64,000 nt of DNA from a bacterium (GCA_965221165.1 CBDCRP010000002.1:864001-928000); one strand, 5' to 3'; shown: positions 4,208 to 32,183, numbered from the stretch's first letter. Numbers and translations: made by a program. Notes: generated by a model from the letters alone, not told the origin.

Positions 4208-4259
4208 AATCTAGGGCAAGGGGTCGTAAACACGGGCAGCGCAAATGCGGGGAAATGCG
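4208..4259 (-). promoter_or_regulatory. Module promoter 1 (capsid/head-tail): direct-repeat box plus -10 TAGATT
   Basis: + strand CGCAAATGCGGGGAAATGCG at 4240-4259 and AATCTA at 4208-4213; 26-bp gap. Confidence 0.8.
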
Positions 4260-4460
4260 TATTAGACGTGTTTTTATGCGGAATTTTTATTTTTGCTAAT
4301 TGTAAATTTTAAGTAAATGCGGTAACATACGGAAAATTCTGGAGTTGCGGACGATGCGGGTGGTCCCGGCGTCTACCAATTCTGGATTCTTCGCCCGCCA
4401 CTCGGAAATTCCCGGATTCGCCGAGCGACAAAGACCGCCCCTAATACGACGTGGACGAGG

Positions 4461-5765
4461 GTGCATATCATGTGGGGCGTCGCTCAACCGGCCTTGAATT
4501 TCATCCAGAACCTCTCCTGGAACCATGTGATCGACATCGGGATCATGTGGTTTCTGCTCTATCAGGTCTACATCCGCTTCAAGGGCACCCAGGCGATGCG
4601 CCTTCTCGTGCGCGTGTTCGCGGTATGGCTCATCTACCTCGCCTCCCAAGCCGCGGGCCTACACCTGACCTCATTCCTGCTTTGGGCCATCTGGATCGCC
4701 GTGCTCATCCTGTTTCTCATCAATTTCCACGGAGAAATCCAAAAGATATTCTTTCAACTCAACCCGGTGCGCAGAATCTCCACCCTGCTGCGCCGGGCGA
4801 TGCGCATCCGCCTGCCGGACGAGAGGGTCGCCACCATCGCCGAATCCGCATTCTCCCTCGCCTCCAAGAGTCTGGGCGCCATCATCGTCGTGGAACGCCG
4901 GGATTTGACCGAAGCGCTGCTGAGCAGCCCGGGCGAGGAGATTGAGGCGGATATCCGGCCGGCGCTGCTTGAAACCATTTTCTTCAAGGGAGCGCCCTAC
5001 CACGACGGCGCCGCCGTGGTCCGCGAGAACAAGGTCTCGCGCGTGGGCTGCCTTTTGCCTCTTTCCGAGAACCGCGCCCTGCCGCCGGAGTTCGGCACCC
5101 GCCACAGGGCGGCGGTGGGCATCACGGAGCGCTGCGACGCCCTGGCGATCGTCATATCCGAGGAGCGGGGGGAGATCACCTGCGTGGAAGGCAGCCATGT
5201 AAAGACGATAGAACATGAGGAGGAACTCGCCTCCTGGCTCACCACGCGCCTGCGCGCGGCCCGCGAAGCGGGGCAAACGAAAGGACGCATATCGCTCGCG
5301 CAGGTTTTCGAGAACTGGAAGCCCAAGCTCGCCGCCCTGGCCGCCGTCATCTTCCTTTGGTCGCTCGGCGGGCAGGAACGTCAAAATCCGCAGAATTTTT
5401 TCCCGCAACTCGAAAGCAAAGTGGAAGAGGAGTTCCGGGTTCCGCTCCATTATTACAACATTCCCAGTGGCGTCATCCTGCCGGACGATTTGGCGAAAAA
5501 CATCAAAATTCGCATCAGGGGCAGGCGCGACCTGCTGAACTACATCGACGCCACCCGCCTGCGCATGAATGTGAACCTTGCCAAAATGACGCCCGGAGCG
5601 CATTCGCGCACGTTCTCCGGACGCGATATCGACCTGCCGAGCGGCCTCGAATTCCTGAGCGCGGAGCCAAAAACCATCCAGTTGAACCTCGCCAAAGCGC
5701 CTAGACCTGAGAAAATGACGAAATCGAGCGCTTCCGCTGAAACAAAAGAATCCTCGAATTTCTAA
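4461..5765 (+). CDS. dacA: Diadenylate cyclase (CdaA/DacA) fused to a C-terminal YbbR/CdaR-like domain
   Basis: Three N-terminal TM segments; HDGA and GTRHRAA catalytic motifs; TM plus YbbR-like C-terminus. Confidence 0.9.
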   Translation: MHIMWGVAQPALNFIQNLSWNHVIDIGIMWFLLYQVYIRFKGTQAMRLLVRVFAVWLIYLASQAAGLHLTSFLLWAIWIAVLILFLINFHGEIQKIFFQLNPVRRISTLLRRAMRIRLPDERVATIAESAFSLASKSLGAIIVVERRDLTEALLSSPGEEIEADIRPALLETIFFKGAPYHDGAAVVRENKVSRVGCLLPLSENRALPPEFGTRHRAAVGITERCDALAIVISEERGEITCVEGSHVKTIEHEEELASWLTTRLRAAREAGQTKGRISLAQVFENWKPKLAALAAVIFLWSLGGQERQNPQNFFPQLESKVEEEFRVPLHYYNIPSGVILPDDLAKNIKIRIRGRRDLLNYIDATRLRMNVNLAKMTPGAHSRTFSGRDIDLPSGLEFLSAEPKTIQLNLAKAPRPEKMTKSSASAETKESSNF

Positions 5766-5842
5766 GACCATTTTTTTCAGCCACTTAAATTTTCTGCATT
5801 TGAAAATTTGCTTTTTTCACTCAAAGAACCCATATTGAACCT

Positions 5843-6131
5843 ACCGGATCATGGCCGCCGAAACGCTCAGATCGCTTTGATGAGCGGCATGGGCGAACCA
5901 TCTCAGATGGTGCTTGGCCTGGCCGAGTGAGGCGGGAAGGAGCCGACGCAGCAAGCGGTTCCGGTCCGGTTTAAGGGAGCCCTCAAAACAAAGGGGGATG
6001 CGATGATATCCACGATAAATCGCTTCAGCCGTGCGGAGACGCCATCCTCCCCGGCCCCATCGCATCAGCCGGGCGGGGAGGAAACCTCAAGGCTGATGCC
6101 TTTATAAAGGCGACAGAACGCCTTTTTGAGG
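5843..6131 (+). ncRNA. Putative structured non-coding RNA, family unknown
   Basis: Sigma70-like TTGCTT-17bp-CATATT promoter (5808-5836) followed by several perfect stems and no credible ORF. Confidence 0.35.
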
Positions 6132-6198
6132 TGAGATGAATTCTCACCCTGGAAAAAAGACAAAAGAGAGCGGGGCGCAATGTCCCGCTCTTCTTTTT

Positions 6199-6411
6199 TT
6201 ACGAACCTCCGGCGACCTGGTTCTTCGCGTCGAGTTTCCGCATCTCGATTTCCAGTTGCTGGAGTCTGTTCTTGATCATGTTGAAGTCGTACTCGAATCC
6301 CTCGGCGAGCAACATGAGACCCCGATACAACTGGTGTTTCTCCGGCTCTTCTTCCTCGCTCACCGAATCGAGCATTTCGACGAAAACCTCTCTCGCATGA
6401 TGAAAGCTCAA
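6199..6411 (-). CDS. Small hypothetical coiled-coil protein
   Basis: 70-aa ORF with amphipathic helical composition and a purine-rich RBS. Confidence 0.5.
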   Translation of the reverse strand: MSFHHAREVFVEMLDSVSEEEEPEKHQLYRGLMLLAEGFEYDFNMIKNRLQQLEIEMRKLDAKNQVAGGS

Positions 6412-6552
6412 AACGCTTTCCCCCTTTTCGAATGAGAACGCACACTACGAAGCAATAAACCTTTTCGCGGGAAGAAATCCCCCCCCCCCGCATCCCTGCT
6501 AGAATCCATCGCATCGACAAATAAACCACAACGCTTTCAAGGAGTCATCTTC

Positions 6553-8748: not shown

Positions 8749-8760
8749 AAGATAATACGC

Positions 8761-10784: not shown

Positions 10785-10937
10785 GGAACCAAAATTCCAG
10801 GTGATCGAAGCGCCAAAGTCCTACTGGATGGATATTAACGGGAGATTTCCCTAAGGCCTTGCCTTCGGTTAGAATGGGGCAAATTCTAAAGACGGGTGAA
10901 TTCGACCTCCCCGTACAATCTCTTACTGGAGGATGAC

Positions 10938-11492
10938 ATGAACGAAATGACGAAGGAAAAGGAGAAAATTCTCGTCTACGAACCCGTGGCGGAGGCTCCG
11001 GGCGCGAGCGCCGTCATGGCCGAGCGGCCCGAGAGCTTAAACGGCAAGAGCGTCGGTCTCATCAACAACACCAAGGATTTCACCGATGAGATTTTCGATG
11101 TGATGGGCGCCGCGCTTGAAAAACAGTTCCCCGGCGTGCGCGTCGTGCGCTACCGGAAAGAATCCGTGAGCGGCGCATCGCCCGCCCTCATGGAGCAGGT
11201 GGAAGGAGAGTGCGACGCCGTCGTATCCGCACTCGGCGACTGAGGCTCGTGCACGTCGTGGAGTATCCACGACAGCGTTGCTCTCGAGAAAAGAGGGCTG
11301 GCCACGGTCACCATCGTCACCGACGCATTCGAGAATTACGCGAAGCAGCTCACCAAGCTGCACAAGATGAACGAGCTTCCCCTCGTCGCACTTCCCCATC
11401 CCATTGCGGGCAGAAAGCGCGAGGAGGTGGATGAGATGTCGGCGAGAGCGAGCGAATTTCTGGCGCACGCCCTCACACAGGCGAGCGGCTGA
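10938..11492 (+). CDS. UGSC-family selenoprotein (UGA = Sec at 11241-11243)
   Basis: ...VVSALGD-U-GSCTSWSIHDSVALEKRG... continues in frame for 83 codons; SECIS-like hairpin at 11255-11273. Confidence 0.9.
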
Positions 11493-11499: not shown

Positions 11500-12600
11500 A
11501 TGAGTTCGCCACAGCCTGCCCGCCAGATAGCGCTCGATGAAGACCCAGGCGCGATATTCGAGCACTTCTACGAAGAAGGCTGGACGGACGGGCTGCCCAT
11601 CATCCCACCGACGGAAGAGCGCGTCGCTGAGACCTTACGCTTCACGGACTATGCGCCGCATGACGTCATCGCCAACGTTCCGCCGAGAAACGCGCCCGCC
11701 ACGTTGGAGAACATCGCCATAAACGCCGTGATGGCGGGCTGCAGACCGGAGTATCTGCCCGTGCTCATCGCCGCAGTAGGGGCCATGACGGAACCCGCCT
11801 ACAACCTCTACGGCCGCCAGACGACCACCCACCCCGGCGCGCACCTGATGATAGTCCACGGGCCGGTACGAAACGAACTGGAAGTCAACTGCCGCCAGAA
11901 CGCCTTCGGCCAGGGCCGACGCGCGAACGCGACGCTCGGGCGCGCGGTGAGGCTCCTGATGATGAACGCCGGCGGCGGCATCCCCGGCGTGACGGACATG
12001 GCCACCCACGGGCATCCGGGAAAATACTCCTACACCATCGGTGAGGACGAGGAGGGAAGCCCCTGGCAGCCATTTCATGTCGACAGGGGTTTCTCGCCCG
12101 ATACTTCCGCCGTCACCATGCTCTGCGCCGAGTCGCCCCACAACGTGAACGATCTGGTGAGCAAGACGACCCATAAGTATCTCGGCACCGCGGCTTCGGC
12201 CATGAGTCACTTAGGCGCCAACGGCGTCTACCGGAGCGGGCTGCCGAGCGAGCAGATGCTGGTGCTGACCGCCGAGGCGGCGACGTGGCTGTCGGATCAG
12301 GGGTGGACGAAGGCCGACGTATCCCAGTTCATCTACGAAACGGCGCGCCAGCCGATTCGCCTCATGCGCGACCGCGGCGGCTTCGACATGACGCCGCTCG
12401 CTCCTTTCGTGAACCTCGATGAGGATGAGGACATGGCCCCCATCGTCCCGAGACCCGAAGACATCCTCATCGTGGTCGCAGGCGGCCACGGCCGCCACAT
12501 GCAGGCCGTCCTCACGGCGAGCTACAACCTGAGCGTCACCAAGCCCATCACCAGAAAAGACGGAACGCCGGTTGGGTCGGTAAGGGAGTTTGTGGAGTAG
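11500..12600 (+). CDS. Conserved UGSC-associated protein (GWTDGLPIIPPT family)
   Basis: GWTDGLPIIPPT, AVMAGCRPEY and RANATLGRA motifs; usual partner of UGSC genes. Confidence 0.8.
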   Translation: MSSPQPARQIALDEDPGAIFEHFYEEGWTDGLPIIPPTEERVAETLRFTDYAPHDVIANVPPRNAPATLENIAINAVMAGCRPEYLPVLIAAVGAMTEPAYNLYGRQTTTHPGAHLMIVHGPVRNELEVNCRQNAFGQGRRANATLGRAVRLLMMNAGGGIPGVTDMATHGHPGKYSYTIGEDEEGSPWQPFHVDRGFSPDTSAVTMLCAESPHNVNDLVSKTTHKYLGTAASAMSHLGANGVYRSGLPSEQMLVLTAEAATWLSDQGWTKADVSQFIYETARQPIRLMRDRGGFDMTPLAPFVNLDEDEDMAPIVPRPEDILIVVAGGHGRHMQAVLTASYNLSVTKPITRKDGTPVGSVREFVE

Positions 12601-12611
12601 AGCGCACCCCC

Positions 12612-13988
12612 CTACCTCTCGAGGTTCATGCCGAACTGGCCCGCGATGTGGGTGATGAGCTTGCCTGCGGCATCGTCGCTCATCCAGCCGCGCGTGGTGG
12701 CCGTCTCAAGCGCCGTGCTCACGCGCAAAAGGGCCTGGGATATCTTCTCGGTATCGCGCACGGATATCTCCGGCAGAACGGGCGAGACGCCCGAGCGCAG
12801 CGCCTCTTCAGACAATGCGCCCGCACGGTGGGCTTCTTCGAGTTGTTTGTCGGCTATGGCTTGCAGAATGTGGCGCACGGTGCGCTGGCACCGCGTCATC
12901 TTCTTGAGCGTGGGCTGATCCATCGACTCGGCCGAGGCGCGGTTCACGTCCTCCCCCTGGGCGAACCAGTGGGAAGGGATGCCCACGCCGCCCAGGAGAA
13001 GCCCCCGCATCATCTTGGCGATTCCCTGAGCGCCGGTTTCTCCGCCTTTCAAGTCGGGCGAGACGGCCTGCCACTCCTCCTTCTCGTTATGCACGCGCAC
13101 GCTCGAGGGCTTGGGCGCGACGCCGTTCTCAGACAGCCACTCGGCTATCTTCTCGGGGCCTGCGCCCTTTAAGGTGACGTCGTAGATGAAGCTGTTCTGC
13201 AGACGCGCGCGCTCCACGGCGTCGAAGATGAAGCGCTCATAGGTGTCTATCCAGTCGATGGCGGCGAGCAAATCAGAAGCCCCCCGCGCCGCGTCACTCG
13301 CCTTGTTGATCTGGAACAAGAACGCCTCCCCGTCCGTGAAGCGCGCGCGCTCCTTCTGGGCGGATGCGCTCAGATAACCGCGCGGGTCGCCCCCCAGAAC
13401 CGTTTTGATTCTCTTGCCCTTGCGCGCCGCTCCGCTTGGGCCTTGGGCGCGCAGGACGACCCCGATGGGCAGGGCGCAGTTGTCCGGGTCCATCACCACC
13501 TCTTCTATCAGGCGGGGGCTGACGTAGCCCAGGCGAACACGCCCCTCGAAGCGCGAGACGGCGACCGGCAGAATGAGTTCCCCGAAAATGCCGAGTTCCG
13601 AGACCAGCCGCTCGAAGCGGATGTCCATCTGGTTCACGGGGTCGCTCCAGAACGCCTCTACCGCGCGCAGGGCGCGCTCGTCCTCCGCATACCAGCTCAC
13701 CCCCTCGCCCACGACGTGATCCGTCACGATTTCGATCAGGCGCTGGCCCATGAGGTTCGTGAGCCACAACTCGTGCGCCAAGGCCTGCATGCGCGCGTGG
13801 GTGTGGGGAGCGACCCCGCTCCGCCCCTCGCCCAGGGGCCGCCAGATTCTCTCATCCGGGTCAATCTCCGCGCTCATTCGCCCGGAACGCTGCGCGGCCG
13901 CTTTTACTCGCGCCGCAACGTCCCCTTTTCTCTTGAGTCCCGTCCTCCGACCGGGAGCCTTCACGCTCTTTGCTTTCTCCATTCTCAT
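12612..13988 (-). CDS. Phage portal protein
   Basis: 458 aa, ATGA-coupled downstream of the terminase; motifs ARGASDL, GVGIPSHWF, DVNRASAESM. Confidence 0.8.
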   Translation of the reverse strand: MRMEKAKSVKAPGRRTGLKRKGDVAARVKAAAQRSGRMSAEIDPDERIWRPLGEGRSGVAPHTHARMQALAHELWLTNLMGQRLIEIVTDHVVGEGVSWYAEDERALRAVEAFWSDPVNQMDIRFERLVSELGIFGELILPVAVSRFEGRVRLGYVSPRLIEEVVMDPDNCALPIGVVLRAQGPSGAARKGKRIKTVLGGDPRGYLSASAQKERARFTDGEAFLFQINKASDAARGASDLLAAIDWIDTYERFIFDAVERARLQNSFIYDVTLKGAGPEKIAEWLSENGVAPKPSSVRVHNEKEEWQAVSPDLKGGETGAQGIAKMMRGLLLGGVGIPSHWFAQGEDVNRASAESMDQPTLKKMTRCQRTVRHILQAIADKQLEEAHRAGALSEEALRSGVSPVLPEISVRDTEKISQALLRVSTALETATTRGWMSDDAAGKLITHIAGQFGMNLER

Positions 13989-14632
13989 CTCCTCCTGAGC
14001 ATCCGCTGATCCAAAGTCTGCGGAACCACCGTTCCCCCGGCGAGGGGGGCCAGCATTCCCTCGCTCTGCGCCAGGGATTCGGCCAGCCGCGCATAGGCGC
14101 AGGCGAACCCGAAGTGGTTCTCGTTTCGCTCATACGCCAGCACCGTCTCCCCGGAGGAGCGGATGCGCGGCTTTTTCCTCAAATTCATCAGATGACGCTC
14201 CACCTCGCTCAAAAGCGCCTCCTCCCCGGTATCCTTAGGACCCGGCAGCAAGACCCGCCCGGCTCCCTCGTGAAACTCCTCCACCAGGTGATCGAGAAGG
14301 TCCTCGCGGTTCATCCGCACGTGGCGGCGCTCCACCCCCAGGAACGAGACCCCCTTGGTCTGCATCTCCCCTTCGGTATGCCGCCAGATGAAGCCGCCAT
14401 CGGGATTCAGGTCGTACACCGCGCGCGCGGCCTGGGTGTGGGGTCCGCCGTCGACCACGAACGCCTCGACGCCCAGACTCGAGAATATCACGCAGCACCG
14501 CTCGCTGAGCCGCTCGACCGGCGGGGCTTCAAAATAAATCCACCGGACGGGCCGGCCTCCCTCGCCCTCGCGCACCGCAACCGCGCAAACATCGCCCGTG
14601 TCGATTCCGCAGAAGCGATGGGGCGCGCTCAT
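13985..14632 (-). CDS. Terminase large subunit, stand-alone nuclease (RNase H-like) part
   Basis: Starts MSAPHRFCGIDTGD with own GGAGG RBS and an ATGA overlap with the ATPase gene; acidic motifs GIDTG and VVDGGP; C-terminal ENHFGFA. Confidence 0.75.
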   Translation of the reverse strand: MSAPHRFCGIDTGDVCAVAVREGEGGRPVRWIYFEAPPVERLSERCCVIFSSLGVEAFVVDGGPHTQAARAVYDLNPDGGFIWRHTEGEMQTKGVSFLGVERRHVRMNREDLLDHLVEEFHEGAGRVLLPGPKDTGEEALLSEVERHLMNLRKKPRIRSSGETVLAYERNENHFGFACAYARLAESLAQSEGMLAPLAGGTVVPQTLDQRMLRRR

Positions 14633-15687: not shown

Positions 15688-15738
15688 AGCCTGTATTCCT
15701 CCATACCGAGGATGCCGCGCGCATCCTCACGGGGGAGG

Positions 15739-15790
15739 AATATAGGGGAGCAAAGCGGGGAACCATGACACGCAAATGCGGGGAAATGCG
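15739..15790 (-). promoter_or_regulatory. Module promoter 2 (terminase-portal): direct-repeat box plus -10 TATATT
   Basis: CGCAAATGCGGGGAAATGCG at 15771-15790 (20/20 identical to 4240-4259); AATATA at 15739-15744; 26-bp gap. Confidence 0.8.
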
Positions 15791-15818
15791 CGCTCGGACG
15801 CGCCGGGGGCGCGCGCCT

Positions 15819-16057
15819 CTAATCACGCATGTTCTCGAACTGGAGCGCGAGCCTTAAGTTCAGCCCCCGGCAGAGGGACATCACCTGCTGTAAGTCGTCT
15901 CGCTTCTTGCCGCTCACTCTCAGCTGATCCCCTTGAACCGCGACCTGAACCTTCATTTTCGCCGCCTTCACCTTCTTGACGATCTCGCGCGCCGAATCCT
16001 GATCCACCCCTTGTTTCACGAGGAGGGTTTGTCTGAGCGCGCCGCCCGAGGCGTATT
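15819..16057 (-). pseudogene. yajQ: YajQ (nucleotide-binding protein), C-terminal half only
   Basis: ASGGALRQ...KMKVQVAVQGDQLRVSGKKRDDLQ...LQFENMRD is the YajQ C-terminus; the N-terminal half is absent. Confidence 0.8.
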
Positions 16058-16283: not shown

Positions 16284-16290
16284 GCCGTAC

Positions 16291-16322
16291 AGAAAAAGAC
16301 CCCGGGGCGCGTCCCCGGGGTT
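16291..16322. terminator. Intrinsic terminator-like hairpin between convergent genes
   Basis: ACCCCGGGG-CGCGT-CCCCGGGGT preceded by an A-run. Confidence 0.6.
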
Positions 16323-19446: not shown

Positions 19447-19473
19447 GGTTTCTCTCCCCCGCAGGCGCGCCCC

Positions 19474-21066: not shown

Positions 21067-21161
21067 GGACGAGTTCTTTCCGTCGGGTCAGTGGAGCGAC
21101 GTAAGCGGCCGCCGCGTTCGCTTTGCCTGAGCGCGCAAATCCACCGGCCCCGCCCGCGCCG

Positions 21162-22367: not shown

Positions 22368-22447
22368 GTCGTCCCCCCGGCGAGTGGACGCGCGAGGAGA
22401 CGGGGAATCAAAACCCCGCCTCCGCCGCGCGGCGTCGCGCGTGATTC

Positions 22448-23404
22448 CTATTTGACCCCGGCTTTTAAGCTCTTACCGACCGCCTGGAGCAGCTTCGTCT
22501 CGAGCGGAATCGTTCCGGTGTCTATCGTGTACTTGGATTTATCGTCCCGATCCATCGCCACGTCGACGCCCGTGCGGACGAGTTGTTTGCCGACGGAATC
22601 GCAAAAAGTCAGCACGGTCGCCAGCATGTTTCCGCGATAGACTTCCTGCACCGCCTCTTCGACGCCGTTGAAACCCGTAACGATGATCTTGCCCAGCTTG
22701 CCGCGCGCCTTGACGGCCTGGAGCGCGCCCAGCGCCATGTCGTCGTTCACGGCGATGATGGCCGAGATATCCGGATGCGCCGTCAGGATGTCCTCCGCTT
22801 TCTTGAGTCCCTGCGCGCGGTCCCAGTTGGCCGCCCAGGTGCCGACCACCTTGATGCCCTTGTACTTGGCCAGCGTGTCTTTCGCGCCCCTTTTCCGCAG
22901 GATGCTGGACATGTTGCCCGGCACGCCTTCCATGAGCGCGACCTTGCCCTTGCCGCCCAATTCCTCGGCGGCGGCCCTGGCGACCGCGGACTGCCCGTAA
23001 TACTGATCCGGGCCGACGAAATGCCGCGCTACCTGCTTGGCCAAATCGTCGGAATGAATCAGCACGCGGATGCCGCTTTTCTGCACCTTCTTGACCGTCT
23101 GCACCATCGCGTTCGGGTCGATGGCGCTGAAGGCGAGAACGTGCACTCGCTTCTGGATCATGTCGTCGATCATCTTGGTCACGCCGATCAAGTCGGTGCC
23201 CAGGGCGCCGCTCAATACCGTGAGCTTGACGTTGGGATTTTTCTTGGCTTCCGCCTCGGCGGAGCGTTTGAGACACGCGAAGTAGGGGTTCCCCAGCGTT
23301 TCCACCACGATGCCAATCTTGATGTCCTTCGCGAACGCGGGCGATGTGAACCCGGCGAACGTGACCGCCACTGCTACGATAACGATGCCGATCATGCGCT
23401 TCAT
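22448..23404 (-). CDS. Sugar ABC transporter substrate-binding protein (RbsB-like)
   Basis: Signal peptide MKRMIG...AFA; NPYF, ANWDR, NDDMALG. Confidence 0.9.
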   Translation of the reverse strand: MKRMIGIVIVAVAVTFAGFTSPAFAKDIKIGIVVETLGNPYFACLKRSAEAEAKKNPNVKLTVLSGALGTDLIGVTKMIDDMIQKRVHVLAFSAIDPNAMVQTVKKVQKSGIRVLIHSDDLAKQVARHFVGPDQYYGQSAVARAAAEELGGKGKVALMEGVPGNMSSILRKRGAKDTLAKYKGIKVVGTWAANWDRAQGLKKAEDILTAHPDISAIIAVNDDMALGALQAVKARGKLGKIIVTGFNGVEEAVQEVYRGNMLATVLTFCDSVGKQLVRTGVDVAMDRDDKSKYTIDTGTIPLETKLLQAVGKSLKAGVK

Positions 23405-23558
23405 AGACTTTCCTCCCCGGTTAGATCTATGGACCAGTGTGCAATCGTATTCTCTGAAATGTATTGATGGGAAAATCATCACACACAGGCTTCGGCCCGT
23501 CAAGAAAGGAGACCGGCGGCGGGCGTGAGTGGACAACCCGCCGCCGGTGGAAAACTCC

Positions 23559-25316
23559 CTACTTCGGCGGAATGATCGGCAAGAGCACGTGGGAGGGATA
23601 CTCGGGACCGGTGTGGACCGTCACCTCGCCGCCGAACACCTCAGGCGGCCTGTCGAGTGGATCGTTGTGCCTAAAGGGTCCCACGCCCGAGAAGACGGCG
23701 GGCATGTTCGGAAGCCCCTTGGCGACGCCGCCCGGGTAGACGTAATCACACCCCCGGATGCTGAGAGCGAGGCGATGGCCCCTGGGAATCACGATGCAGG
23801 TGGGCCAAATCTCGACGTCCAGTTCGTATATCTCGCCGGGTGTCAAGGGCTGCGCCTCGTCGTGCGTGTGGTAGGGCCGATAGGGCAGCGTGCGATTTTC
23901 ATCCAGCTTTCGGTGCGAGGCCCTGAGCCAGCCCTGGGCGACCGGTGTTTTGGGGTCGAGCGCGCCCTGAAAGGTGACCTCCTTGAAATCGGGCGTGAAG
24001 AGCCTTAAAACCAGGAACAGGTCGGCGTCTTCGGTGGCGGAAGACACCCACAGCCTGGACGCCAGGGGGCCCGTGATCTCGGTTTCACTCTTCAAGGGAG
24101 GCGAGACGAACGTCACCCCGTCGCCCAGGCCCGAATAGGTGGCGGAACCCGCCTCGGCGGGCGCGGCCTCGCCGAGCAGGTGGCCCTCGCTCTGGAGAAA
24201 GAGCTTCGTCCACTGCGTGCGCGCGATGGGCCACTCGTTCTCCGCGCGCTCCACGAATTTCTCTCCCGGGTGGCGCACCTGGAGCAGGACTCTGGGCTGA
24301 TCCTTCCAGCCCGTGTCCTCATCTTTCAGGAAATGACCAAAGAATTTCTTCTGTAGCATCACGCCGTAATCGGTGTAAAACTCCGTCCAGTGCTCGATGC
24401 CGTGGCTCTCGAGCCATTTTTCTTCCGAGGCCGCGTTCATGAAGGCCTCGCAGTTCCCGCGCGGGTGAAGACCCTGGCCGCCCCAGTTGTTCGAGGAGAG
24501 AAACGGAACCTCGATTTGGGACCAGTCGGGGGTTTTCCCCTTCCAGTATTCATCATCGAGCGGGTGCGCGCGCATCTCCGCTCCCAGGCGGCAGCGGTTA
24601 GCACCCAACTCCTCCTCGCTCAGGGTGTCCGGCCCCGAGACCCAGTCGCCCGTCACCCTGCTCCTGTAGCCGCGCTCACCCAGGCCATGCTGTTTGGAGC
24701 GCGCCCTTCGCTCGTACCAGTTCTCCGTGAACGTGCAGTAAATGCCCCCGTGGTAGTTCATGTCGCGATAGAAATCCGCCGCCCCCTCCCAGGCGCACAT
24801 GGCGACGAGATGCGGCGGCTTCAAGCACGCGACCTGCCACTGGTTGATGGCGTAATACGAGATGCCGTTGATACCCACCTTCCCGTTGCTCCAGGGCTGC
24901 ACGCCCGCCCACTCGATGCAGTCGTAGAAATCCCTGGTTTCGCGATCCGAGAAGGGATCCATATATCCCGGCGAGCGGCCAGCGCCCCTCGAGTCCACGC
25001 GCAGGCATACGTAGCCCTCGGGCACCCATTTTTCCGGGTCCACGACCTCCCAGTTCTGGTACTTGTTGGAGGAGCCGGCGGCGACGTCGGGGTGTTGCTC
25101 CACCATGCGCCGCCACTGTTCGGGATAGCCGTCCTCGAAGTGGAGCCACTTCCCGTAAATCCCGTAAGTGATCAGGACGGGATAGCGTCCCTCGCCGGTG
25201 GGCCGGTAGACGTCGCAGCGCAGCACGACGCCGTCGTCCATCTCGATGGGAACTTCCCAGTCGATCCGCATGCCGTCGGCTATTTCAGATTTACGCCCTC
25301 TCATCGCACACCTCAC
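23559..25316 (-). CDS. CocE/NonD-family hydrolase
   Basis: DSRGAGRSPG, nucleophile elbow GISYY, C-terminal GWLRASHR. Confidence 0.9.
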   Translation of the reverse strand: MRCAMRGRKSEIADGMRIDWEVPIEMDDGVVLRCDVYRPTGEGRYPVLITYGIYGKWLHFEDGYPEQWRRMVEQHPDVAAGSSNKYQNWEVVDPEKWVPEGYVCLRVDSRGAGRSPGYMDPFSDRETRDFYDCIEWAGVQPWSNGKVGINGISYYAINQWQVACLKPPHLVAMCAWEGAADFYRDMNYHGGIYCTFTENWYERRARSKQHGLGERGYRSRVTGDWVSGPDTLSEEELGANRCRLGAEMRAHPLDDEYWKGKTPDWSQIEVPFLSSNNWGGQGLHPRGNCEAFMNAASEEKWLESHGIEHWTEFYTDYGVMLQKKFFGHFLKDEDTGWKDQPRVLLQVRHPGEKFVERAENEWPIARTQWTKLFLQSEGHLLGEAAPAEAGSATYSGLGDGVTFVSPPLKSETEITGPLASRLWVSSATEDADLFLVLRLFTPDFKEVTFQGALDPKTPVAQGWLRASHRKLDENRTLPYRPYHTHDEAQPLTPGEIYELDVEIWPTCIVIPRGHRLALSIRGCDYVYPGGVAKGLPNMPAVFSGVGPFRHNDPLDRPPEVFGGEVTVHTGPEYPSHVLLPIIPPK

Positions 25317-25336
25317 GTCTTTTATGAGAAATTTAC

Positions 25337-27082
25337 TTATTTTTCAGGAATCACCGGCAGCAACACGTGCGATGGATGCGCCGGGCCGGTGTGAAGCGTC
25401 ACCTTTCCGCCGAACAACTCCGTCGGCCTGTCTTCTTTCAAATCATGCTTGAAGGGCCCCACGCCGTAATAGATGCGGCCCGATATTTTGGGTGCTGTCG
25501 GCTCGTAGCCCGGCCAGACGTAATCGCGCCCGCGAACGCTCAAGGCGAGGCGGTATTCCTTGGGGATCACGATGGAAGTCGGCCAGATTTCTACGTCCAG
25601 TTCGTATATCTCGCCCGGCGTCAGGGGCTGAATCTCATCGTGCGTGTGGTAGGGCCGATAGGGCAGCGTGAGCGCCTCATCGAGCTTTCTGTGCGAGGCC
25701 CTGAGCCAGCCGATGGCCACGGGCGTGTGCGGGTCGTTCGCACCCCGGTAGAGGATCTCCGTCATGTCCGGCGAGAAGACGCGCAGGGTGAGGAACAAAT
25801 CCGCGTCTTCCGTATCCGAGGAGATGAACATCTTGGCCGCCACGGGGCCCGTGATCTCGGTTTCCTCGGCGAAAGGAGACGAGACGTATATAAGCCCGTC
25901 TCCCAGGGCGTCATAGGTCTTCGCCCGTTCGTTGGTCTGGGGTTCCGCCCTGAAGGCGCCGGATCCTGAATGCAGGTAATACTTCGTCCACTGCGTGCGC
26001 GCGATGGGCCACTCGCTCTCCGCGCGCGCCACGAATTTCTCGCCCGGATGACGCACCTGGAGCAGGACTTTCGGCTGCTCCTCCCAGCCCGTATCCTCAC
26101 CTTTTAAGAAATGGCCAAAAAATTTCTTCTGGAGCGCAACGCCGTAATCTGTATAAAAATGCGTGAAATGCTCGAGGCCGTGCATTTCCAGCCATTTCTC
26201 CCCGGTGGCCGATTGCACGAAGCCCTCCGTGTTGCCCCTGGGATGCAGACCCACGCCGCCCCAGTTGCCCGCCGATAAGAGCGGCACGTTGATTTTAGAA
26301 TAATCGGGCATGCGCGCGCGCCAGTAATCATCCACGAGAGGATGATCCAGGATGTCGCGCCCGAAATCGCTCCTGTTCGAAGCGAGTTCTTCTTCGCTCA
26401 GGTTCGCAGGGCCTGATATCCAGTCTCCGTTCAGTCGGCTCTTGATGCCGCGCTCCCCCTTGCCGTACTGCCGGGGCACGACGGCCTCGCGGTACCAGGT
26501 CTCAGAAAACCGACAGGCGATGCCCCCGTGGTGGGCGAGATCGCGGTAGAAATCGGCCGCCCCCTCCCAGACGCACATGGCCGCCAGGTGCGGCGGCTGG
26601 AGCGATGCCACCTGCCACTGGTTCATCCCGTAATAAGAGATGCCGTTCAGCCCCACCTTCCCGTTGCTCCAGGCCTGTACGCCCGCCCACTCGATGCAGT
26701 CATGAAAATCCCGCGCTTCGCGCGGCGACCACACCTCGAGATAGCCCGGCGAACGCCCGGCGCCCCTTGAATCCACCCGCACGCAGGCGTAGCCCTCGGG
26801 CACCCATTTCTCGGGGTCCACCAGTTCCCAGTTCTGGTATTTATTGCTCGTCCCCATGACGGTTTCCGGATAATCGTTCACCATCAGGCTCCACTGGTGG
26901 GGGTAGCCGTCTTGTAGATGAAGCCACTTGGCGTAGGGGCCGTAGCTCATGATGACGGGATATTCCCCATCGTCATCGGGCCGGTAGACGTCGCAGCGCA
27001 GCACCACGCCGTCGTCCATCTCGACCGGCACGTCCCAGTCGATGCGCATCCCGTCTCTTGCCTCGCTCTTGTACTCGCTCAT
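25337..27082 (-). CDS. CocE/NonD-family hydrolase (tandem paralog)
   Basis: Same motifs; highly similar to its neighbour. Confidence 0.9.
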   Translation of the reverse strand: MSEYKSEARDGMRIDWDVPVEMDDGVVLRCDVYRPDDDGEYPVIMSYGPYAKWLHLQDGYPHQWSLMVNDYPETVMGTSNKYQNWELVDPEKWVPEGYACVRVDSRGAGRSPGYLEVWSPREARDFHDCIEWAGVQAWSNGKVGLNGISYYGMNQWQVASLQPPHLAAMCVWEGAADFYRDLAHHGGIACRFSETWYREAVVPRQYGKGERGIKSRLNGDWISGPANLSEEELASNRSDFGRDILDHPLVDDYWRARMPDYSKINVPLLSAGNWGGVGLHPRGNTEGFVQSATGEKWLEMHGLEHFTHFYTDYGVALQKKFFGHFLKGEDTGWEEQPKVLLQVRHPGEKFVARAESEWPIARTQWTKYYLHSGSGAFRAEPQTNERAKTYDALGDGLIYVSSPFAEETEITGPVAAKMFISSDTEDADLFLTLRVFSPDMTEILYRGANDPHTPVAIGWLRASHRKLDEALTLPYRPYHTHDEIQPLTPGEIYELDVEIWPTSIVIPKEYRLALSVRGRDYVWPGYEPTAPKISGRIYYGVGPFKHDLKEDRPTELFGGKVTLHTGPAHPSHVLLPVIPEK

Positions 27083-27637
27083 GTCTCGCCTTTCTGAAAA
27101 AAGGTTGGAATCACCGTCGGTGACATATTTAGGGATGGGAGGAATATAACCGAGGGGATGGGGCTAGTCCAGGTATGGAGGGGTGATTCAGCGAGAGCTT
27201 TTATGCCGGAGAATACGCTCTACGACTCTTACCTATTGGCAAAATCGCGCAGATGGGAATGTTGTGGCCAAGTAGATTGCTAAAGACATTTACAACTAAA
27301 TCACACCAATTTAAGAACAATTCCATAAACTGATTAATGCCCAACACAACATTTTGTAGATAAATGAGTTATTTTTGATTTTTATCCACAAAATGTGGTA
27401 TATTTTGAAACTTACTAGCCTTTGGAATGGGGCACCAAAGGATAGTAAGTTTAACGACAGACGAACTAACTGAAAACGTGAAGCAACATAAGATGTGGAT
27501 AAAGATTGAGTGCCTCCGATCTTCACCATCGAAGGCACTCATGCTGATGTGTTGCCGGGAGCATCAGCAACCGGGGGCAGATGGACAGGCCATTTCGCTT
27601 CTATTATCTGTCAACCCCGGCAATAGGAGGAAGGGAT

Positions 27638-27772
27638 ATAACCCCTTCCAAAGGCTCTGAAGATTACATTGTGATCTTCAGAAAATCTATTACCCTTCCG
27701 AATGGGAGAGTCATTCATGCCAGCGATTATGGCAAGGTGGCTTTCCCCATTCGAATTAAAAAGAAAGGGTAG
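27638..27772 (+). CDS. Small basic hypothetical protein (start uncertain)
   Basis: AGGAGG RBS 7 nt before ATA 27638 (alternative GTG 27671); ...VIFRKSITLPNGRVIHASDYGKVAFPI...; followed by a strong hairpin. Confidence 0.4.
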   Translation: MTPSKGSEDYIVIFRKSITLPNGRVIHASDYGKVAFPIRIKKKG

Positions 27773-27781
27773 TAGATGAGT

Positions 27782-27813
27782 GGGCATCGGGGAGTGGACA
27801 CTCCCCGATGCCC
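27782..27813. terminator. Perfect hairpin between convergent mini-ORFs
   Basis: GGGCATCGGGGAGTG-GA-CACTCCCCGATGCCC. Confidence 0.65.
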
Positions 27814-27816
27814 TAC

Positions 27817-27939
27817 TTATTTCGGAGCAATTTTTTTATCCGCCGCCTTGAACACGGCCTTAGCGATTTGCTGAGCCGTAGCAGGTATCCGTTCTATAAC
27901 GTTTTTTACTGGCCTGCCTGGTGGTTTAGCATTACTCAT
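27817..27939 (-). CDS. 40-aa mini-protein, copy 1
   Basis: MSNAKPPGRPVKNVIERIPATAQQIAKAVFKAADKKIAPK; paralog at 28811-28933. Confidence 0.6.
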   Translation of the reverse strand: MSNAKPPGRPVKNVIERIPATAQQIAKAVFKAADKKIAPK

Positions 27940-28179
27940 GAGACACCCCCACGTCGAATACCTTTTTTAGATATCCAATGTTCCTTTTATTGTAATTTTT
28001 TGAGGCGGATAGTTACATACGATGCAACGTGTTGCAAATGTAACCGAAATGAAATTTTTGTCAACAATATTTTCACGACTTTTCCACGCCTTATCCACAA
28101 GGCAATGGGTAACTTTCCGCCTAATTAAGTATATAATCCCCCAAATTTTTTTCAGTCGTACGCGGCCACTCGAAGCCAT

Positions 28180-28644
28180 TCAGGCGGCGACGGCTCTTGG
28201 CTCATCCAGCATATTGTGTTGGGCTGTGGGTTTCTTCACCGTCCTTACTTGCACATAGGGCCGATGCTCGTCTGCGTTTTTCTTTTCCATTCCTTCGGCT
28301 TCAATATCCCCTCGGCGCACTGCTTCGACGGCTTCAGCCCATTCTTGTTTCGTCTCTTCGCAGATTTCGTTGAAGAATGTCTCCACTCGCTGTTTGAACA
28401 TCGAGAAATCGTCGGCTTCCTCAGCCATGTCGAACAGGACGGACGTGTAGGTCCGCCGGAACGTGGAGAATGCCTCATCCTCGTTCTGTCCGGTCGCGGC
28501 GATTCCACCCGGCTGTATTCCGTACATCCATGTGGAATCATCCTCTTTCATCCCGAGGAGCGTTCCCATCATTTTCACATTCGCCACGAAGCCGTTTCCT
28601 TCCACCTTGTCCGAGAAGGTAAAAAAGAACGGAAACGCGCTCAT
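28180..28644 (-). CDS. Hypothetical protein with a HicB-like segment
   Basis: AAGGAG RBS; PGGIAATGQNEDEAF resembles the HicB partial RNase H fold; no intact HicA seen. Confidence 0.55.
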   Translation of the reverse strand: MSAFPFFFTFSDKVEGNGFVANVKMMGTLLGMKEDDSTWMYGIQPGGIAATGQNEDEAFSTFRRTYTSVLFDMAEEADDFSMFKQRVETFFNEICEETKQEWAEAVEAVRRGDIEAEGMEKKNADEHRPYVQVRTVKKPTAQHNMLDEPRAVAA

Positions 28645-28810
28645 GTCACTCTCCTTTTCGGTTTTTGAAAAACCTTATCTCCAGATAGACTAATCCATCT
28701 GTCTTATCCGTGTTTCAAATTCGTTATGATTGTTCCATTATTTGCCCTGAAGAACTTTTCTGTCAAGGAAGGTAATTTCAGGCGACAACGGGTCCAACCC
28801 TAAAAACTCC

Positions 28811-28933
28811 CTATTTTAATACAAGAATCTTCGTATTCGCCGCTCGATAGATGGCTTTAGCAATTTCTTGTGGCGACGCCGGGGCCGGTTGCACAACGTT
28901 CTTCACCGGACACCCCGGTGATTTGGTACTCAT
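28811..28933 (-). CDS. 40-aa mini-protein, copy 2
   Basis: MSTKSPGCPVKNVVQPAPASPQEIAKAIYRAANTKILVLK. Confidence 0.55.
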   Translation of the reverse strand: MSTKSPGCPVKNVVQPAPASPQEIAKAIYRAANTKILVLK

Positions 28934-29111
28934 TAGATGCCCCTTTGCCAAGCGAATGAATTCGACCGCCGTCTCACACAGCGCACCCTATTACATAACT
29001 TGTAGCACTTTGCAACTTTTCAGCACACTTTTTTCGCATTTTATCAACACAACCAAAGTTATATATTATTCCCTTTTTTACCAATCCTCCGGAATTTTCC
29101 GCCCCCCCCCA

Positions 29112-29683
29112 TCACTCGATGCGCTCCTCGAGCTTGCGCGTCGCCTCGGCGGTGAGTTCGCATATCTTCTCCATCACCTCGGGATGATCGCGGAGCGATT
29201 CGCGCACCTCGTTGACAATCGCCATCTTGGCGGCGGCGAACCCGTCCTCGTACTGAAGCCTGAGACGCTCGGCCGATATGCGGCTGTTCTCGAGCGTGTT
29301 CACCATCTTCGCGATTTTTTCGGGGGTCAAGCCCTCGAAGGATTTCCGTTCCATGTGCGAGACGGCCTCGACCGCCTGCGCCATCAGCATCCGCCGCGCG
29401 GCGGCGGCCACCTTCTCGCCCGGGTCCCTGCCCTCACCGTCGTAGGCCATGACTTCTTCGATCAGCTCATCCACCATGGCTTCGACCTGCTTACTCTTGC
29501 GGATGCCCTCGAGCAGGCGCCGTTGTGCCTGAATACGGAAGATATCTGCAGCGGCTCCCCGGTGGCGTTCTCGAAGGCCCGCGCCACTTCCTTGTAGGTC
29601 TTCCCCTCGGCGAGCATGGGATCGACGAACTTCTCCGCGTCGTATCGCTCGATTTTCGCACGGCGTCCCCGTCTTCTCTCCAT
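29112..29683 (-). pseudogene. Mu gp27/DUF3486-like putative small terminase with a 1-nt frameshift near 29523
   Basis: N-terminal MERRRGRRAKIE...TYKEVA...ISSVFRH in one frame; helical C-terminal RRLLEGIRKSKQ...LRDHPEVMEKI in another; coupled to the gp26-like gene. Confidence 0.65.
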
Positions 29684-30015
29684 CACAACTCTCCCACGAG
29701 GATGTCGGGCGACCCCGATACGGCTCCCTCGAGCAGGCCCCGCCCCCGGCGGGTGAGGTGGACCTCGTAGTCGGTGAGCAGGCGGCCGAAACCGCCCGGG
29801 GTGCGCTTTTCCACCAAGCCCCGCTCCGCCAGATCGTCCACGAAGGCCTCGAGCGTCTCCCGGCCGATGGGCGCGCCGTCCTCGTGGTGGCCCGCCTCGC
29901 GCAGCGCGCTCCACAGAAGAAGGCTGCCGACGCTCGATTTCTCCTGAAAGGCATCCTGGTAATAAAGCGTCTTCAATATGTCGCCGCGCAGAACGCGGGC
30001 CGCCAACTCGTTCAC
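29683..30015 (-). CDS. Mu gp26-like winged-helix protein
   Basis: LRGDILKTL...LAERGLVE...LTRRGRGLLEG pattern; lies immediately before the DUF3486-like gene, as in Mu-like phages. Confidence 0.7.
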   Translation of the reverse strand: MNELAARVLRGDILKTLYYQDAFQEKSSVGSLLLWSALREAGHHEDGAPIGRETLEAFVDDLAERGLVEKRTPGGFGRLLTDYEVHLTRRGRGLLEGAVSGSPDILVGEL

Positions 30016-30152
30016 GCCAAAACACCTCCTGGATAACTTTGACCCTCAAACGCCGGACGCGGCACGCCTGGATTCGGCGTCTCTCGCGGATGATGAAATA
30101 CGCCCCGGGCGTCTCGGCACGCCCCTCCCCCGCGCGCGGCGGGGATTCGGGC

Positions 30153-30204
30153 AATATAGGGTGCGGCGCAGGTTCCGGCGGCCCCGTAAATGCGGGCAAA
30201 TGCG
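30153..30204 (-). promoter_or_regulatory. Module promoter 3 (gp26/small terminase): direct-repeat box plus -10 TATATT
   Basis: CGTAAATGCGGGCAAATGCG at 30185-30204; AATATA at 30153-30158; 26-bp gap. Confidence 0.8.
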
Positions 30205-30267
30205 GGGGCCTGTGCGTTGAGAAAAAAAACCAGCAAGCCCACAATGCTCCCCGGGGAGGACGCTTCG

Positions 30268-30666
30268 ATGCGCGCGCGCGACTGGAAAATCACCGCCACG
30301 GCCGCCATCTGCACGCTGTGGTTCTTGTGGCTGCCCGATTCGCCGGCCTCAGGCCACGGGGAGGAGGAAATCCTCCTGTTCGCCTATCTGGCGGAAGAGC
30401 AAAACCTCCTGAGAATCTCGACCGCCATCGTGGGCGGCATCATCCTGGCGATGGGCGCCTTTATCACCCAGCAATCGCGCGCCGAGGCGAGAGAGGGAGC
30501 AGGAGCCGAATACTCGGGCTTCAAGGTGATGGCGCCGGGGCTGCTCGTCACCTGTCTGGGCGTCGGCGTGTTGTTCACGGCCGCCTTCATCCTGCCCGAG
30601 CAGATCAAGATCGTGCACGATCATCCTCTGGGCCAATCCGAGACAAAGGCTCACGAGAGGCGCTGA
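30268..30666 (+). CDS. Hypothetical membrane protein
   Basis: GGAGG RBS, three hydrophobic segments; opposite strand, interrupting the phage modules. Confidence 0.6.
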   Translation: MRARDWKITATAAICTLWFLWLPDSPASGHGEEEILLFAYLAEEQNLLRISTAIVGGIILAMGAFITQQSRAEAREGAGAEYSGFKVMAPGLLVTCLGVGVLFTAAFILPEQIKIVHDHPLGQSETKAHERR

Positions 30667-30720
30667 ACCACCCGCGCCCGGCAAACCGCGCCGGTGAATT
30701 TTCTGCGACCGGGAACCCTC

Positions 30721-31143
30721 TCACCTCGCTTTTCCCGTCAATTTCTCGACGGTGCGCAGAGCGCCGAGACCCAGCATCCCCAGGGTGAGCTCTAAAAGCC
30801 CCTCCGCCGAGACGGGATAGGGAACCAGCGCGCCGCCCATCAGCACCTGCCGCGTCCAGAGCCAGGCGCCCAGGGCGTACTGGGGGATGAAATAAAAGGC
30901 GAGCGACACGCCGCAGGTCCACAATATGAACGGCCTCCCCCCGGCGACGAAGGCGCTGCGGTGCGCCGCCTCGATTTTGTTTATCTCGTTCTGGGCTTCC
31001 AAGGGGCGCATCATCAGCTTTTGTTTTATCGCCTCCGCCGCCCGTCTCTCATCGGGCGTTTCGACGAACTTGTCGATGACGTTGGCGACGCCCTCGGCCG
31101 CCGTAACGACGCCTCCGCCGATGAGTTTTTCGAAAAAAGCCAT
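30721..31143 (-). CDS. 3TM holin (GTA_holin_3TM-type family)
   Basis: MAFFEKLIGGG...IEAAHRSAFVAGGRPFILW...LGMLGLGALRTVEK; start overlaps the lysozyme stop. Confidence 0.85.
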   Translation of the reverse strand: MAFFEKLIGGGVVTAAEGVANVIDKFVETPDERRAAEAIKQKLMMRPLEAQNEINKIEAAHRSAFVAGGRPFILWTCGVSLAFYFIPQYALGAWLWTRQVLMGGALVPYPVSAEGLLELTLGMLGLGALRTVEKLTGKAR

Positions 31144-31556
31144 CACGCGCTCCTCATCATCCCGGCGACCCTGCCCGCCCGGGCGGGCAACTCGCGCGCG
31201 TAATCGGAATCGAGCGCCTCCGCAGCCGCTCCCTCGTAATCGCCCTCCGCAAGCGCCGCCCACATTTTCCTGAAACCAAGAAGGCTCGGCACGCCCATGT
31301 TGTAGGCCATGTTCAAAACCGCGCGCTGTGCGCCGGGCCTTAAATTCGCATATACCCCGTCGACGGAGGAGCGCTCGATTTCTTCGGCCATCAGCCCCAG
31401 GCGATGCCGAAGAAGCAGTTCGGCTTCGGCCTCGGATATACCGTCCTCGATAAGCGTCCCGTAGCCGATGGTCTGCTTGCCCCTGGTGTCCAAATACACC
31501 CTGGGCTTGAAACCCTCCTCTTGCTTGATCTCCTCGATCAGTTCGTCCGTGAGCAT
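31143..31556 (-). CDS. Phage lysozyme/endolysin (GH24, T4-like)
   Basis: EEG...YLDTRGKQTIGYG catalytic region; NMAYNMG; FRKMWAAL. Confidence 0.9.
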   Translation of the reverse strand: MLTDELIEEIKQEEGFKPRVYLDTRGKQTIGYGTLIEDGISEAEAELLLRHRLGLMAEEIERSSVDGVYANLRPGAQRAVLNMAYNMGVPSLLGFRKMWAALAEGDYEGAAAEALDSDYARELPARAGRVAGMMRSA

Positions 31557-31774
31557 GGCTTCTCCTCATTCATCAGCGAATCCTCGCCGTCATTTGCCTC
31601 TCTCATCAGACGCCGCAGCGACGCCGCTCCCTTGTGAGCGCCCACGCGGCCCGCGTAGGCCTGGCTCGAGGCCAGGATGCGTCCGTTTTTCGCCCTGACG
31701 CGGAAACGATGCCGCCCGGATTCGTCCTCGAAAATCTCGATGGGACGCCGTCCCGATCTTTTCACGGCGCGCAT
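31538..31774 (-). CDS. DUF1508/YegP-like small protein
   Basis: IEIFEDESGRHRFRVRAKNGRILASSQAY. Confidence 0.75.
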   Translation of the reverse strand: MRAVKRSGRRPIEIFEDESGRHRFRVRAKNGRILASSQAYAGRVGAHKGAASLRRLMREANDGEDSLMNEEKPCSRTN

Positions 31775-31977
31775 GTCGAAACCCCCAGGTAAATCCCCAA
31801 ACCCAAAAGACACGCGGCGACGGCGGCGAGGCGAAAGGCAGCATGCCTGCCGTTCACCCAGCGCCACACAATGGAGCCCGTTCGCTTTTCGAATTCATTT
31901 TTCTCGGACATGATTTTCCTCTCTCTTCAGGGGGAATCCCGCGCGCCGCCCTTAGGCTGCGCGCCTCGACCCGGGAG

Positions 31978-32029
31978 ATCCTAGGCCTTGATGACACCGG
32001 GCCTATGACGCAAAATGCGGGCAACTGCG
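31978..32029 (-). promoter_or_regulatory. Module promoter 4 (lysis): direct-repeat box plus -10 TAGGAT
   Basis: GCAAAATGCGGGCAACTGCG at 32010-32029 (third TGCG at 32036-32039); ATCCTA at 31978-31983; 26-bp gap. Confidence 0.72.
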
Positions 32030-32183
32030 GGGTGATGCGCCGCTCGGCCCTCGGATGTGCGCGCAAAATCCCGCGGTGTTTCAACCCAAGGGGAGTAGTG
32101 CTAAAATGCGCATCGCCCGAGGGTCGTATGAATACAAAAGGGCGCGCGCCCTCGCGCACGCCGCCGCACACAGGAGATGAACC

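Follow-up and report, generated by a model that had tools for sequence, protein, structure and literature searches.

A tandem-repeat promoter box shared by the units of a dispersed, domesticated particle gene set resembling gene transfer agents

Gene transfer agents (GTAs) are known in detail from few lineages, and the way in which their scattered genes fire jointly is understood for fewer. The multi-locus GTA of Rhodobacter capsulatus (RcGTA) is driven by the direct activator GafA with CtrA (PMC9638019; PMC6363796). For CcGTA, GafYZ is described as combining activation with anti-termination, and for BaGTA an antiterminator is described as integrating the loci (PMC11150451; bioRxiv 10.1101/2024.11.20.624540). 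Here we analyse a stretch of 64,000 nucleotides (nt) from a bacterial genome (GCA_965221165.1, CBDCRP010000002.1:864001-928000), called the window throughout and numbered from its first letter, in which one promoter element, a 20-bp box of direct repeats with a -10-like hexamer at a fixed distance, precedes four units of phage-like genes. Two kinds of promoter described outside the GTAs serve for comparison. At ompF (site F3) and ompC (site C3), OmpR occupies promoter-proximal tandem sites and recruits polymerase. The late-promoter sites of Mu C and Mor and of P2 Ogr and P4 Delta are dyad-symmetric, and the Mu C site overlaps the -35.

Read on the minus strand, all four sites of the window consist of the 7-bp repeats CGCA(T/G)TT and CGCATTT at a 10-bp period, and each 20-bp box is separated by 26 nt from a CC that directly precedes TANNNT (CCTAGATT at site 1, CCTATATT at sites 2 and 3, CCTAGGAT at site 4). 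The elements are the following.

4240-4259, minus: promoter box 1, CGCATTT twice with a period of 10 bp, and GCG, 20-mer CGCATTTCCCCGCATTTGCG
15771-15790, minus: promoter box 2, 20-mer identical to that of box 1
30185-30204, minus: promoter box 3, 20-mer CGCATTTGCCCGCATTTACG
32010-32029, minus: promoter box 4, 20-mer CGCAGTTGCCCGCATTTTGC
32010-32039, minus: box 4 with an extra, weaker third repeat CGCATCA one turn upstream
4312-4331, minus: distal degenerate copy of the box with two mismatches (site C2_868331), 72 bp upstream of box 1
4208-4213, minus: -10-like TAGATT of the capsid module, start predicted near 4201
15739-15744, minus: -10-like TATATT of the packaging module, start predicted near 15732
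30153-30158, minus: -10-like TATATT of module 3, start predicted near 30146
31978-31983, minus: -10-like TAGGAT of the lysis module, start predicted near 31971

This architecture had been proposed in an initial annotation of the stretch, whose coordinates proved exact; the identity of the 20-mers of sites 1 and 2, which it also pointed out, is seen directly in the sequence. With at most one mismatch, CGCAKTTNNNCGCATTT has four matches in the window against a mean of 0.12 in 100 dinucleotide-preserving shuffles of it, none of which reaches four, and at this threshold the window holds no copy beyond the four sites. A sigma-70 consensus scan of 12501-32500, a range that covers sites 2-4 and leaves out site 1, returned nine promoter-like sites, none of them at sites 2-4; consequently no recognisable -35 is present there. 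The lack of a -35 stated by the initial annotation is thereby upheld at these three sites, and it fits the activator-dependent kind of promoter then suggested. The poor or absent -35 is a property of this genus only, the sister-genus genome G045 having a GTTGG (see below). The repeats are direct and not inverted, and so do not show the dyad symmetry of late promoters of the Mu C or P2 Ogr type. With two or more direct repeats at a 10-bp period, within the 10-11 bp of such promoters, and a fixed register to the -10, the sites have the build of a tandem-site activator promoter. In the whole genome (G000; 3.69 Mb in three contigs), CGCATTTNNNCGCATTT has 21 exact and 23 one-mismatch copies, that is 44 sites. 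In 17 of these 44 the distance from the motif start to a TANNNT is 44-46 nt (11 of them at offset 46), other offsets remaining near the background of 0.44% per position, and this offset places the repeats at about -58 to -39.

The reading that we favour, and hold to be moderately likely, is that a tandem-binding activator at -35-less promoters co-induces a GTA-like domesticated particle system. The 20-bp box would be the docking site of a putative sequence-specific activator, which would occupy the 7-bp direct repeats, two or in places three of them, in head-to-tail fashion along a single helix face between about -58 and -39, and would recruit a sigma-70-type RNA polymerase to promoters with a good -10 (TAnnnT) and no -35. 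One site would in this way co-induce at least five separate operons, devoted to packaging, head and tail tube, tail, lysis, and a winged-helix protein with a small terminase. We favour this mechanism because of the missing -35, the two or three head-to-tail units, their position at -58 to -39 and the concerted evolution of the sites described below. Transcription would start about 7 nt after each -10, and we suppose that the box serves activation rather than repression.

The promoters are conserved at every module across the genus, so that one architecture does unite these phage-like units, as first proposed. Among 26 related capsid loci, the box is exact in 15 and carries one mismatch in two more; CCTAGATT after it is kept in most genus loci, and the degenerate distal box lies at the same distance in 13 of the 26. 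The box of the large terminase (TerL) promoter is kept across 21 genus loci, with CTATATTCCT invariant in all 21, and the promoter of the tail module, which lies on another contig, is likewise kept in 21/21. Counting this genome, the module 3 box precedes the orthologous gene in 14 genomes, its -10 reading TATATT, TATGTT or TATACT, and the module 4 box has three tandem repeats in 13 genomes, with TAGAAT, TAAACT or TAGATT as the -10 in the relatives. Similarity to relatives, in searches at the DNA level, begins right at the box. Repeats of variant sequence, standing just as far from a TAGATT or TACATT, are present in more distant relatives, the records of which bear the titles Candidatus Tectomicrobia or Nitrospinota.

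In the sister-genus genome G045 the corresponding element is CGAATTT-N3-CGAATTT, with seven exact copies. These boxes or close variants stand with the same spacing before the capsid, tail and TerL units and one other unit, and they also precede a few host genes. A one-base change made at all sites in concert between genera argues for one trans-acting protein. A regulator gene sought in the G045 cluster was not found there, only host-type genes.

The box also vanishes together with the particle genes. Two genus genomes, G008 and G009, are without the capsid gene, and DNA searches for modules 2-5 return only host flanks in them. They hold 0 and 1 exact copies of the motif, against 21-65 in 18 other genus genomes, and at two mismatches they come closest to the controls (42 matches versus 30, and 47 versus 15). 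In G009 a relic box persists at the emptied TerL locus. In a further genome, G015, the three good box-like matches with one mismatch are the capsid, TerL and tail promoters.

The initial annotation had offered the motif as a search handle for the rest of the system, and this use led to a fifth box-led module on another contig, at G000:C3:1159111, where the TATATT is one nt closer to the box. The module comprises seven open reading frames (ORFs) of 381, 177, 403, 313, 233, 127 and 563 amino acids (aa). Searches of its proteins against PHROGs and NCBIfam gave only one weak tape-measure match, that of the 563-aa protein to the model RcGTA_tape (1.1e-7, far under the cut-off), and one weak PHROG match without assigned function. 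The 403- and 313-aa proteins have homologues in distant relatives that adjoin the capsid gene, and a homologue of the 563-aa protein comes there after the tail tube unit; this position beside capsid and tail genes identifies the fifth unit as a tail module.

Between the modules of the window lie luciferase-like monooxygenases, an adenylate cyclase, an ABC transporter and S15 and M24 peptidases, with F420 genes also flanking. Because ordinary host genes separate the units, they are not a prophage, and the flanks, which are the part of the genome examined for this, hold no integrase, replication or lysogeny genes. Both host flanks are as here in 16 of the 26 capsid loci (a DisA-type gene with a DAC domain on one side, cupin and F420 genes on the other), and some 20 species of the genus share the gene order, the host neighbours and the promoters. 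For ten particle genes measured against this genome, the ratio of nonsynonymous to synonymous substitution rates (dN/dS) is 0.12-0.26, compared with 0.135-0.19 for three host neighbours, and dS is alike for both sets (0.43-0.61). The capsid gene occurs in 33 of 41 genomes of the family and, within the order, in 9 of 11 genera; the four genomes of one genus have a second, partial match. The only relative found in IMG/VR is 28% identical. By dN/dS, dS and this distribution, the particle genes are vertically inherited and have long been under purifying selection. Judged from their genes and neighbourhoods, the modules are a dispersed, vertically inherited, domesticated set of phage-particle genes of GTA-like type, for which particle production is predicted from the genes alone. 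Such a set, in conserved synteny with host genes, takes the place of the four phage modules first described. The motif is a family-old control element of a domesticated particle system, and in this genome it is not exclusive to phage genes.

The genes behind the four boxes, all on the minus strand, are these.

2027-4159, minus: fusion of prohead protease and major capsid protein (Pfam Phage_capsid_4 8e-46; PHROG phrog_29592 7e-135; NCBIfam scaf_prot_MCP2 1e-56)
371-2079, minus: three head-tail genes, of 142 aa, 236 aa and a 169-aa HK97-gp10-like protein (HK97-gp10_like 8e-8)
14629-15687, minus: ATPase part of the large terminase, 352 aa, lambda gpA type (GpA_ATPase 8.8e-18; phrog_675 8.8e-52)
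13985-14632, minus: nuclease part of the large terminase, 215 aa, a separate ORF (phrog_675 positions 357-549; ATGA overlap with the ATPase stop)
12612-13988, minus: portal protein (phrog_10963 1.3e-45)
29683-30015, minus: 110-aa winged-helix-like protein, first gene of module 3 and candidate DNA-binding factor
29112-29683, minus: small-terminase-like gene with helix-turn-helix and coiled coil, N and C parts in two frames
30721-31867, minus: lysis cassette of a DUF1508 protein, a phage lysozyme and a holin with three transmembrane (TM) segments
31538-31867, minus: DUF1508 protein (DUF1508 4e-9)
31143-31556, minus: phage lysozyme (Phage_lysozyme 1.7e-13)
30721 to about 31140, minus: three-TM holin (GTA_holin_3TM 1.2e-11; phrog_3427 holin 2.9e-23)

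To the left of the window the capsid module continues with a tail tube gene (Phage_tube_2 4.5e-11, L067:16633-17772) and a 130-aa gene, and its gene order is the same in relatives. The set therefore encodes all the functional classes of a tailed phage, from head and DNA packaging to tail and lysis, the gene content expected of a GTA. The two-frame layout of the terminase recurs in 21/21 genus loci, where the ORFs overlap by ATGA or GTGA and a GGAGG serves as ribosome-binding site. A programmed -1 frameshift was considered and dropped, the second frame having its own ATG or GTG behind GGAGG in all 21. Since this start overlaps the stop and lies behind GGAGG in every locus, the terminase gene is split, and by the same sequence evidence the two ORFs are a conserved split gene and not a product of decay. 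Such a stably split large terminase (13985-15687, minus) is unusual.

The 110-aa winged-helix-like protein has no match in Pfam, PHROG or NCBIfam; in a protein atlas its nearest neighbours are viral hypothetical proteins and the YjcQ, MarR_2 and DUF2513 families. It is 84-94% identical to its relatives, with a dN/dS of 0.15. The small-terminase-like gene is frame-broken in this genome only, since the genus relatives and G045 have it as a single ORF of about 190-200 aa, and the DNA contigs of runs X1 and X2 show no insertion or deletion relative to the window. On account of this broken frame, the present strain may not make functional particles, and its packaging may be defective.

Each module leader starts with a GC-rich hairpin. 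None has a U-tract, hence there is no terminator to read through. In the terminase leader hairpin (15690-15740, minus) a 5' CCUCC pairs with the ribosome-binding GGAGG; of 17 predicted pairs two show a compensatory change, and the outer helix is invariant. This hairpin could be a translational lock or a stabiliser of the mRNA.

Several other features of the window were recorded beside the modules. Between modules 4 and 3, on the opposite strand, lies a 158-aa ORF without family (30190-30666, plus); as this stretch is kept in the module-less G008 and G009, it is a host gene splitting modules 3 and 4. At 27100-29100 an AT-richer island (GC about 0.53-0.55) contains a pair of paralogous ORFs, each about 40 aa long, a 154-aa ORF without family assignment and sigma-70-like promoters close to consensus, and looks like an inserted element beside module 3. 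At 33366-35053 (plus) an N6_N4 DNA methylase and a SmaI-like endonuclease form a type II restriction-modification pair, and a UGSC-family ORF lies at 10896-11243 (plus; Pfam UGSC 3.8e-15).

Several observations weigh against the activator mechanism set out above. In this genome the box also occurs at about 39 sites away from the modules, at least 20 of the 44 sites have no TA at the expected -10 place, and some face the 3' end of a convergent gene, several composites abutting its stop codon, so that not every copy is a productive gene promoter. Genome G006 has 33 exact copies of the motif and none of the phased A-tract arrays that follow many of the non-module boxes here; the non-module copies are therefore heterogeneous. 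The promoters of G045 carry a -35-like GTTGG at the right distance, from which the box may only assist an ordinary promoter, and the winged-helix gene of that genome is not behind a box. The cognate factor is putative, the 110-aa winged-helix protein being a candidate only. No RNA run was listed for 12500-20500 of the window, and the starts and expression of the modules are predictions made from sequence.

A more specific proposal is that the box is the operator of a dedicated activator, that it has accompanied the particle genes from a time before the family began to diversify, and that it was then copied, in this genus, onto dozens of intergenic repeats and host promoters. We regard this fuller history as rather unlikely. 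Such an activator may be encoded by the particle set itself, with the 110-aa winged-helix protein as candidate. If this proposal holds, particle induction also rewires host metabolism genes and fires many orphan promoters, and a virus-derived regulon has been taken over and enlarged by its host.

Unlikely in our view is that the box acts as an UP-element-like site for the alpha subunit of RNA polymerase, giving strong, factor-independent promoters whose co-regulation would come from elsewhere, for instance from the leader hairpins. UP subsites in E. coli lie at about -55 and -45, and the box does present two ATTT patches one turn apart at about these positions; in G045 and at the GntR-type sites of this genome a -35-like hexamer directly follows it. 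Every module has a 5' hairpin, and that of TerL, by pairing CCUCC with the ribosome-binding site, could carry the regulation. However, the invariant part of the box includes CGC and not only A/T, a concerted change from CGCATTT to CGAATTT is hard to explain with a very conserved alpha subunit, and the motif is missing from the particle-less genomes of the genus despite the same polymerase. Constitutive expression of holin and lysozyme would, moreover, presumably be lethal.

The copies outside the modules bring in a different kind of explanation. With K at position 5, the pattern has 46 matches in the genome against 2 for the reversed control, and two or three tandem 10-bp repeats occur at the motif sites. 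Genes downstream of non-module boxes include aceE, mnmA, a tctC-like gene, cyclase-family genes, an SCO1-type gene, GntR regulators and many ORFs without family. The statement of the initial annotation that no full copy precedes host genes is correct within the window and does not extend to the genome, as the copies before aceE, mnmA and the tctC-like gene demonstrate. It had also counted a motif common in front of unrelated genes as evidence against the regulon; with 44 copies this is formally the case here, softened by the fact that the module sites are the old, conserved core. Of 22 other genus genomes, 18 hold 21-65 exact copies, two hold one and two hold none. No exact copy occurs in 18 genomes outside the genus, where all control patterns also give 0, and a search of viral contigs with CGCATTTSCCCGCATTTGC gave 0 matches. 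In the literature, none of the papers listed was relevant, by its title, to a CGCATTT direct-repeat promoter motif. An SOS (LexA) box was considered and set aside: lexA lies at C2:1340971 and recA at C3:844782, and none of the 44 sites is near either.

About 26 of the sites have some 200 nt of downstream sequence in common, in which TATGSY, a weaker hexamer, takes the place of the -10 and is followed by GC-rich sequence that varies, five or six GAAAA units phased at 10 bp, and a TTGATA...GTTATG box. In all, the genome has about 55 A-tract arrays, in which four to seven GAAAA units with 10-bp phasing precede TTTAnnnnnTTGATAnnTAnGGnGTTATG, and a box lies upstream of only 16-22 of them. Two examples are the following.

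C3:1663868-1663922 of G000: A-tract array
C3:1681960-1682015 of G000: A-tract array

The array pattern has 103 overlapping matches in G000 against 0 for its control, and none in G006, G008 or G009; G019 has a GC-richer unit, GAAAACCCGG. These arrays may be intrinsically curved DNA or a repeat family. Folding of the GC-rich part after the -10 was no better than that of shuffles in 17/17 copies (z from -1.8 to +1.4); at gathering score, Rfam returned for 20 non-module box loci only an unrelated cspA match at the edge of one locus; and 26 box loci contain no tRNA gene. A small-RNA gene family behind the non-module boxes is thus not supported by these predictions. A sigma-54 or other second promoter after the arrays was also looked for by eye and rejected, no consistent hexamers being seen. 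A second intergenic repeat, CCTCATCGGTCG...TTGACC, sometimes with tandem 21-mers, is often found upstream of boxes and arrays, as in these examples.

C2:1049100-1049230 of G000: CCTCATCGGTCG...TTGACC repeat
C3:123840-123970 of G000: CCTCATCGGTCG...TTGACC repeat

From such copies it could be argued that the box is mainly a signal at the end of, or within, some mobile or selfish intergenic repeat, or else a packaging or recombination site, and that its presence at the modules is a by-product; we find this quite improbable. The shared 200 nt with its phased A-tract arrays speak for it, as does a copy number that ranges from 0 to 65 among species. The composite adjacent to serS has a box at the orthologous place in 0/21 matched relatives and that upstream of aceE in 5-6/22, so that these two non-module copies are younger than the module promoters. 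Recognition sites of lambda gpA-type terminases combine repeats with bent DNA, and the terminase here is of that type. Against this, some 20 species and the sister genus have the module copies fixed at orthologous positions, where they hold a constant distance to the -10 and to the first gene. Most of the 55 or so arrays have no box upstream and the boxes of G006 have no arrays, and inspection by eye of the composites of box and array revealed no terminal inverted repeats.

An equally improbable role, as operator of a repressor or silencer under which the particle genes stay off until it is removed, would explain co-occurrence and conservation as well as any trans factor does, but the box lies upstream of the -10 and of the -35 position and overlaps neither, promoters without a -35 should be weak without help, and the lack of any copy with up to one mismatch near recA or lexA shows that it is not an SOS box.

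Returning to the tandem-binding activator, its interest would lie in a control element, defined by its sequence, that marks every unit of a so far undescribed domesticated particle system in an uncultured marine lineage. The box predicted a missing tail module, changes in concert between genera and vanishes with the particle genes; as it marks all units, co-varies and is lost with them, it provides a direct route to the putative regulator. Such systems could likewise be recognised by it in metagenomes, and its spread to host loci may exemplify how a regulon grows when repeats propagate. Our literature search found no paper linking GTAs with Tectomicrobia, and for Nitrospinota only a salt-pan survey.

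Among known systems, the late promoters of Mu (C, Mor), P2 (Ogr) and P4 (Delta) resemble the present ones in that a single activator site, without a good -35, serves morphogenesis and lysis operons. They differ from them, on the other hand, in that the repeats here are direct and lie further upstream, and that the genes are fixed in the host and not part of a phage genome. Mu C-dependent promoters, put forward by the initial annotation as the analogue, are not supported as such, given their dyad site overlapping the -35 against tandem direct repeats at about -58 to -39. OmpR- and PhoB-type promoters come nearer in geometry, in that a pair of head-to-tail 10-bp units makes up a 20-bp site between about -60 and -40, the -35 is weak or missing and some promoters have extra copies upstream; here the repeat sequence is unrelated, the 10-bp period is exact and the regulator is putative.

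As in CcGTA and BaGTA, a dedicated regulator, putative here, would tie the loci together; unlike the anti-termination reported there, our leader hairpins are without U-tracts. RcGTA belongs to an unrelated bacterial lineage, the records of the present relatives being titled Nitrospinota and Candidatus Tectomicrobia, and its gene set differs from the split lambda gpA-type terminase and protease-capsid fusion found here. Particle production in the present system is a prediction from its genes. The signals also differ, a tandem repeat of 2x7 bp upstream of the -35 here compared with GafA binding around the -10 and -35, for which the part of the RcGTA work used gives no consensus (PMC9638019). In both, nevertheless, a phage-derived particle has its head and tail, accessory and lysis genes at several chromosomal loci. 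Both are inherited vertically, and a dedicated factor binding near the promoters induces these loci together in RcGTA (PMC9638019) and would do so, by our proposal, in the present system.

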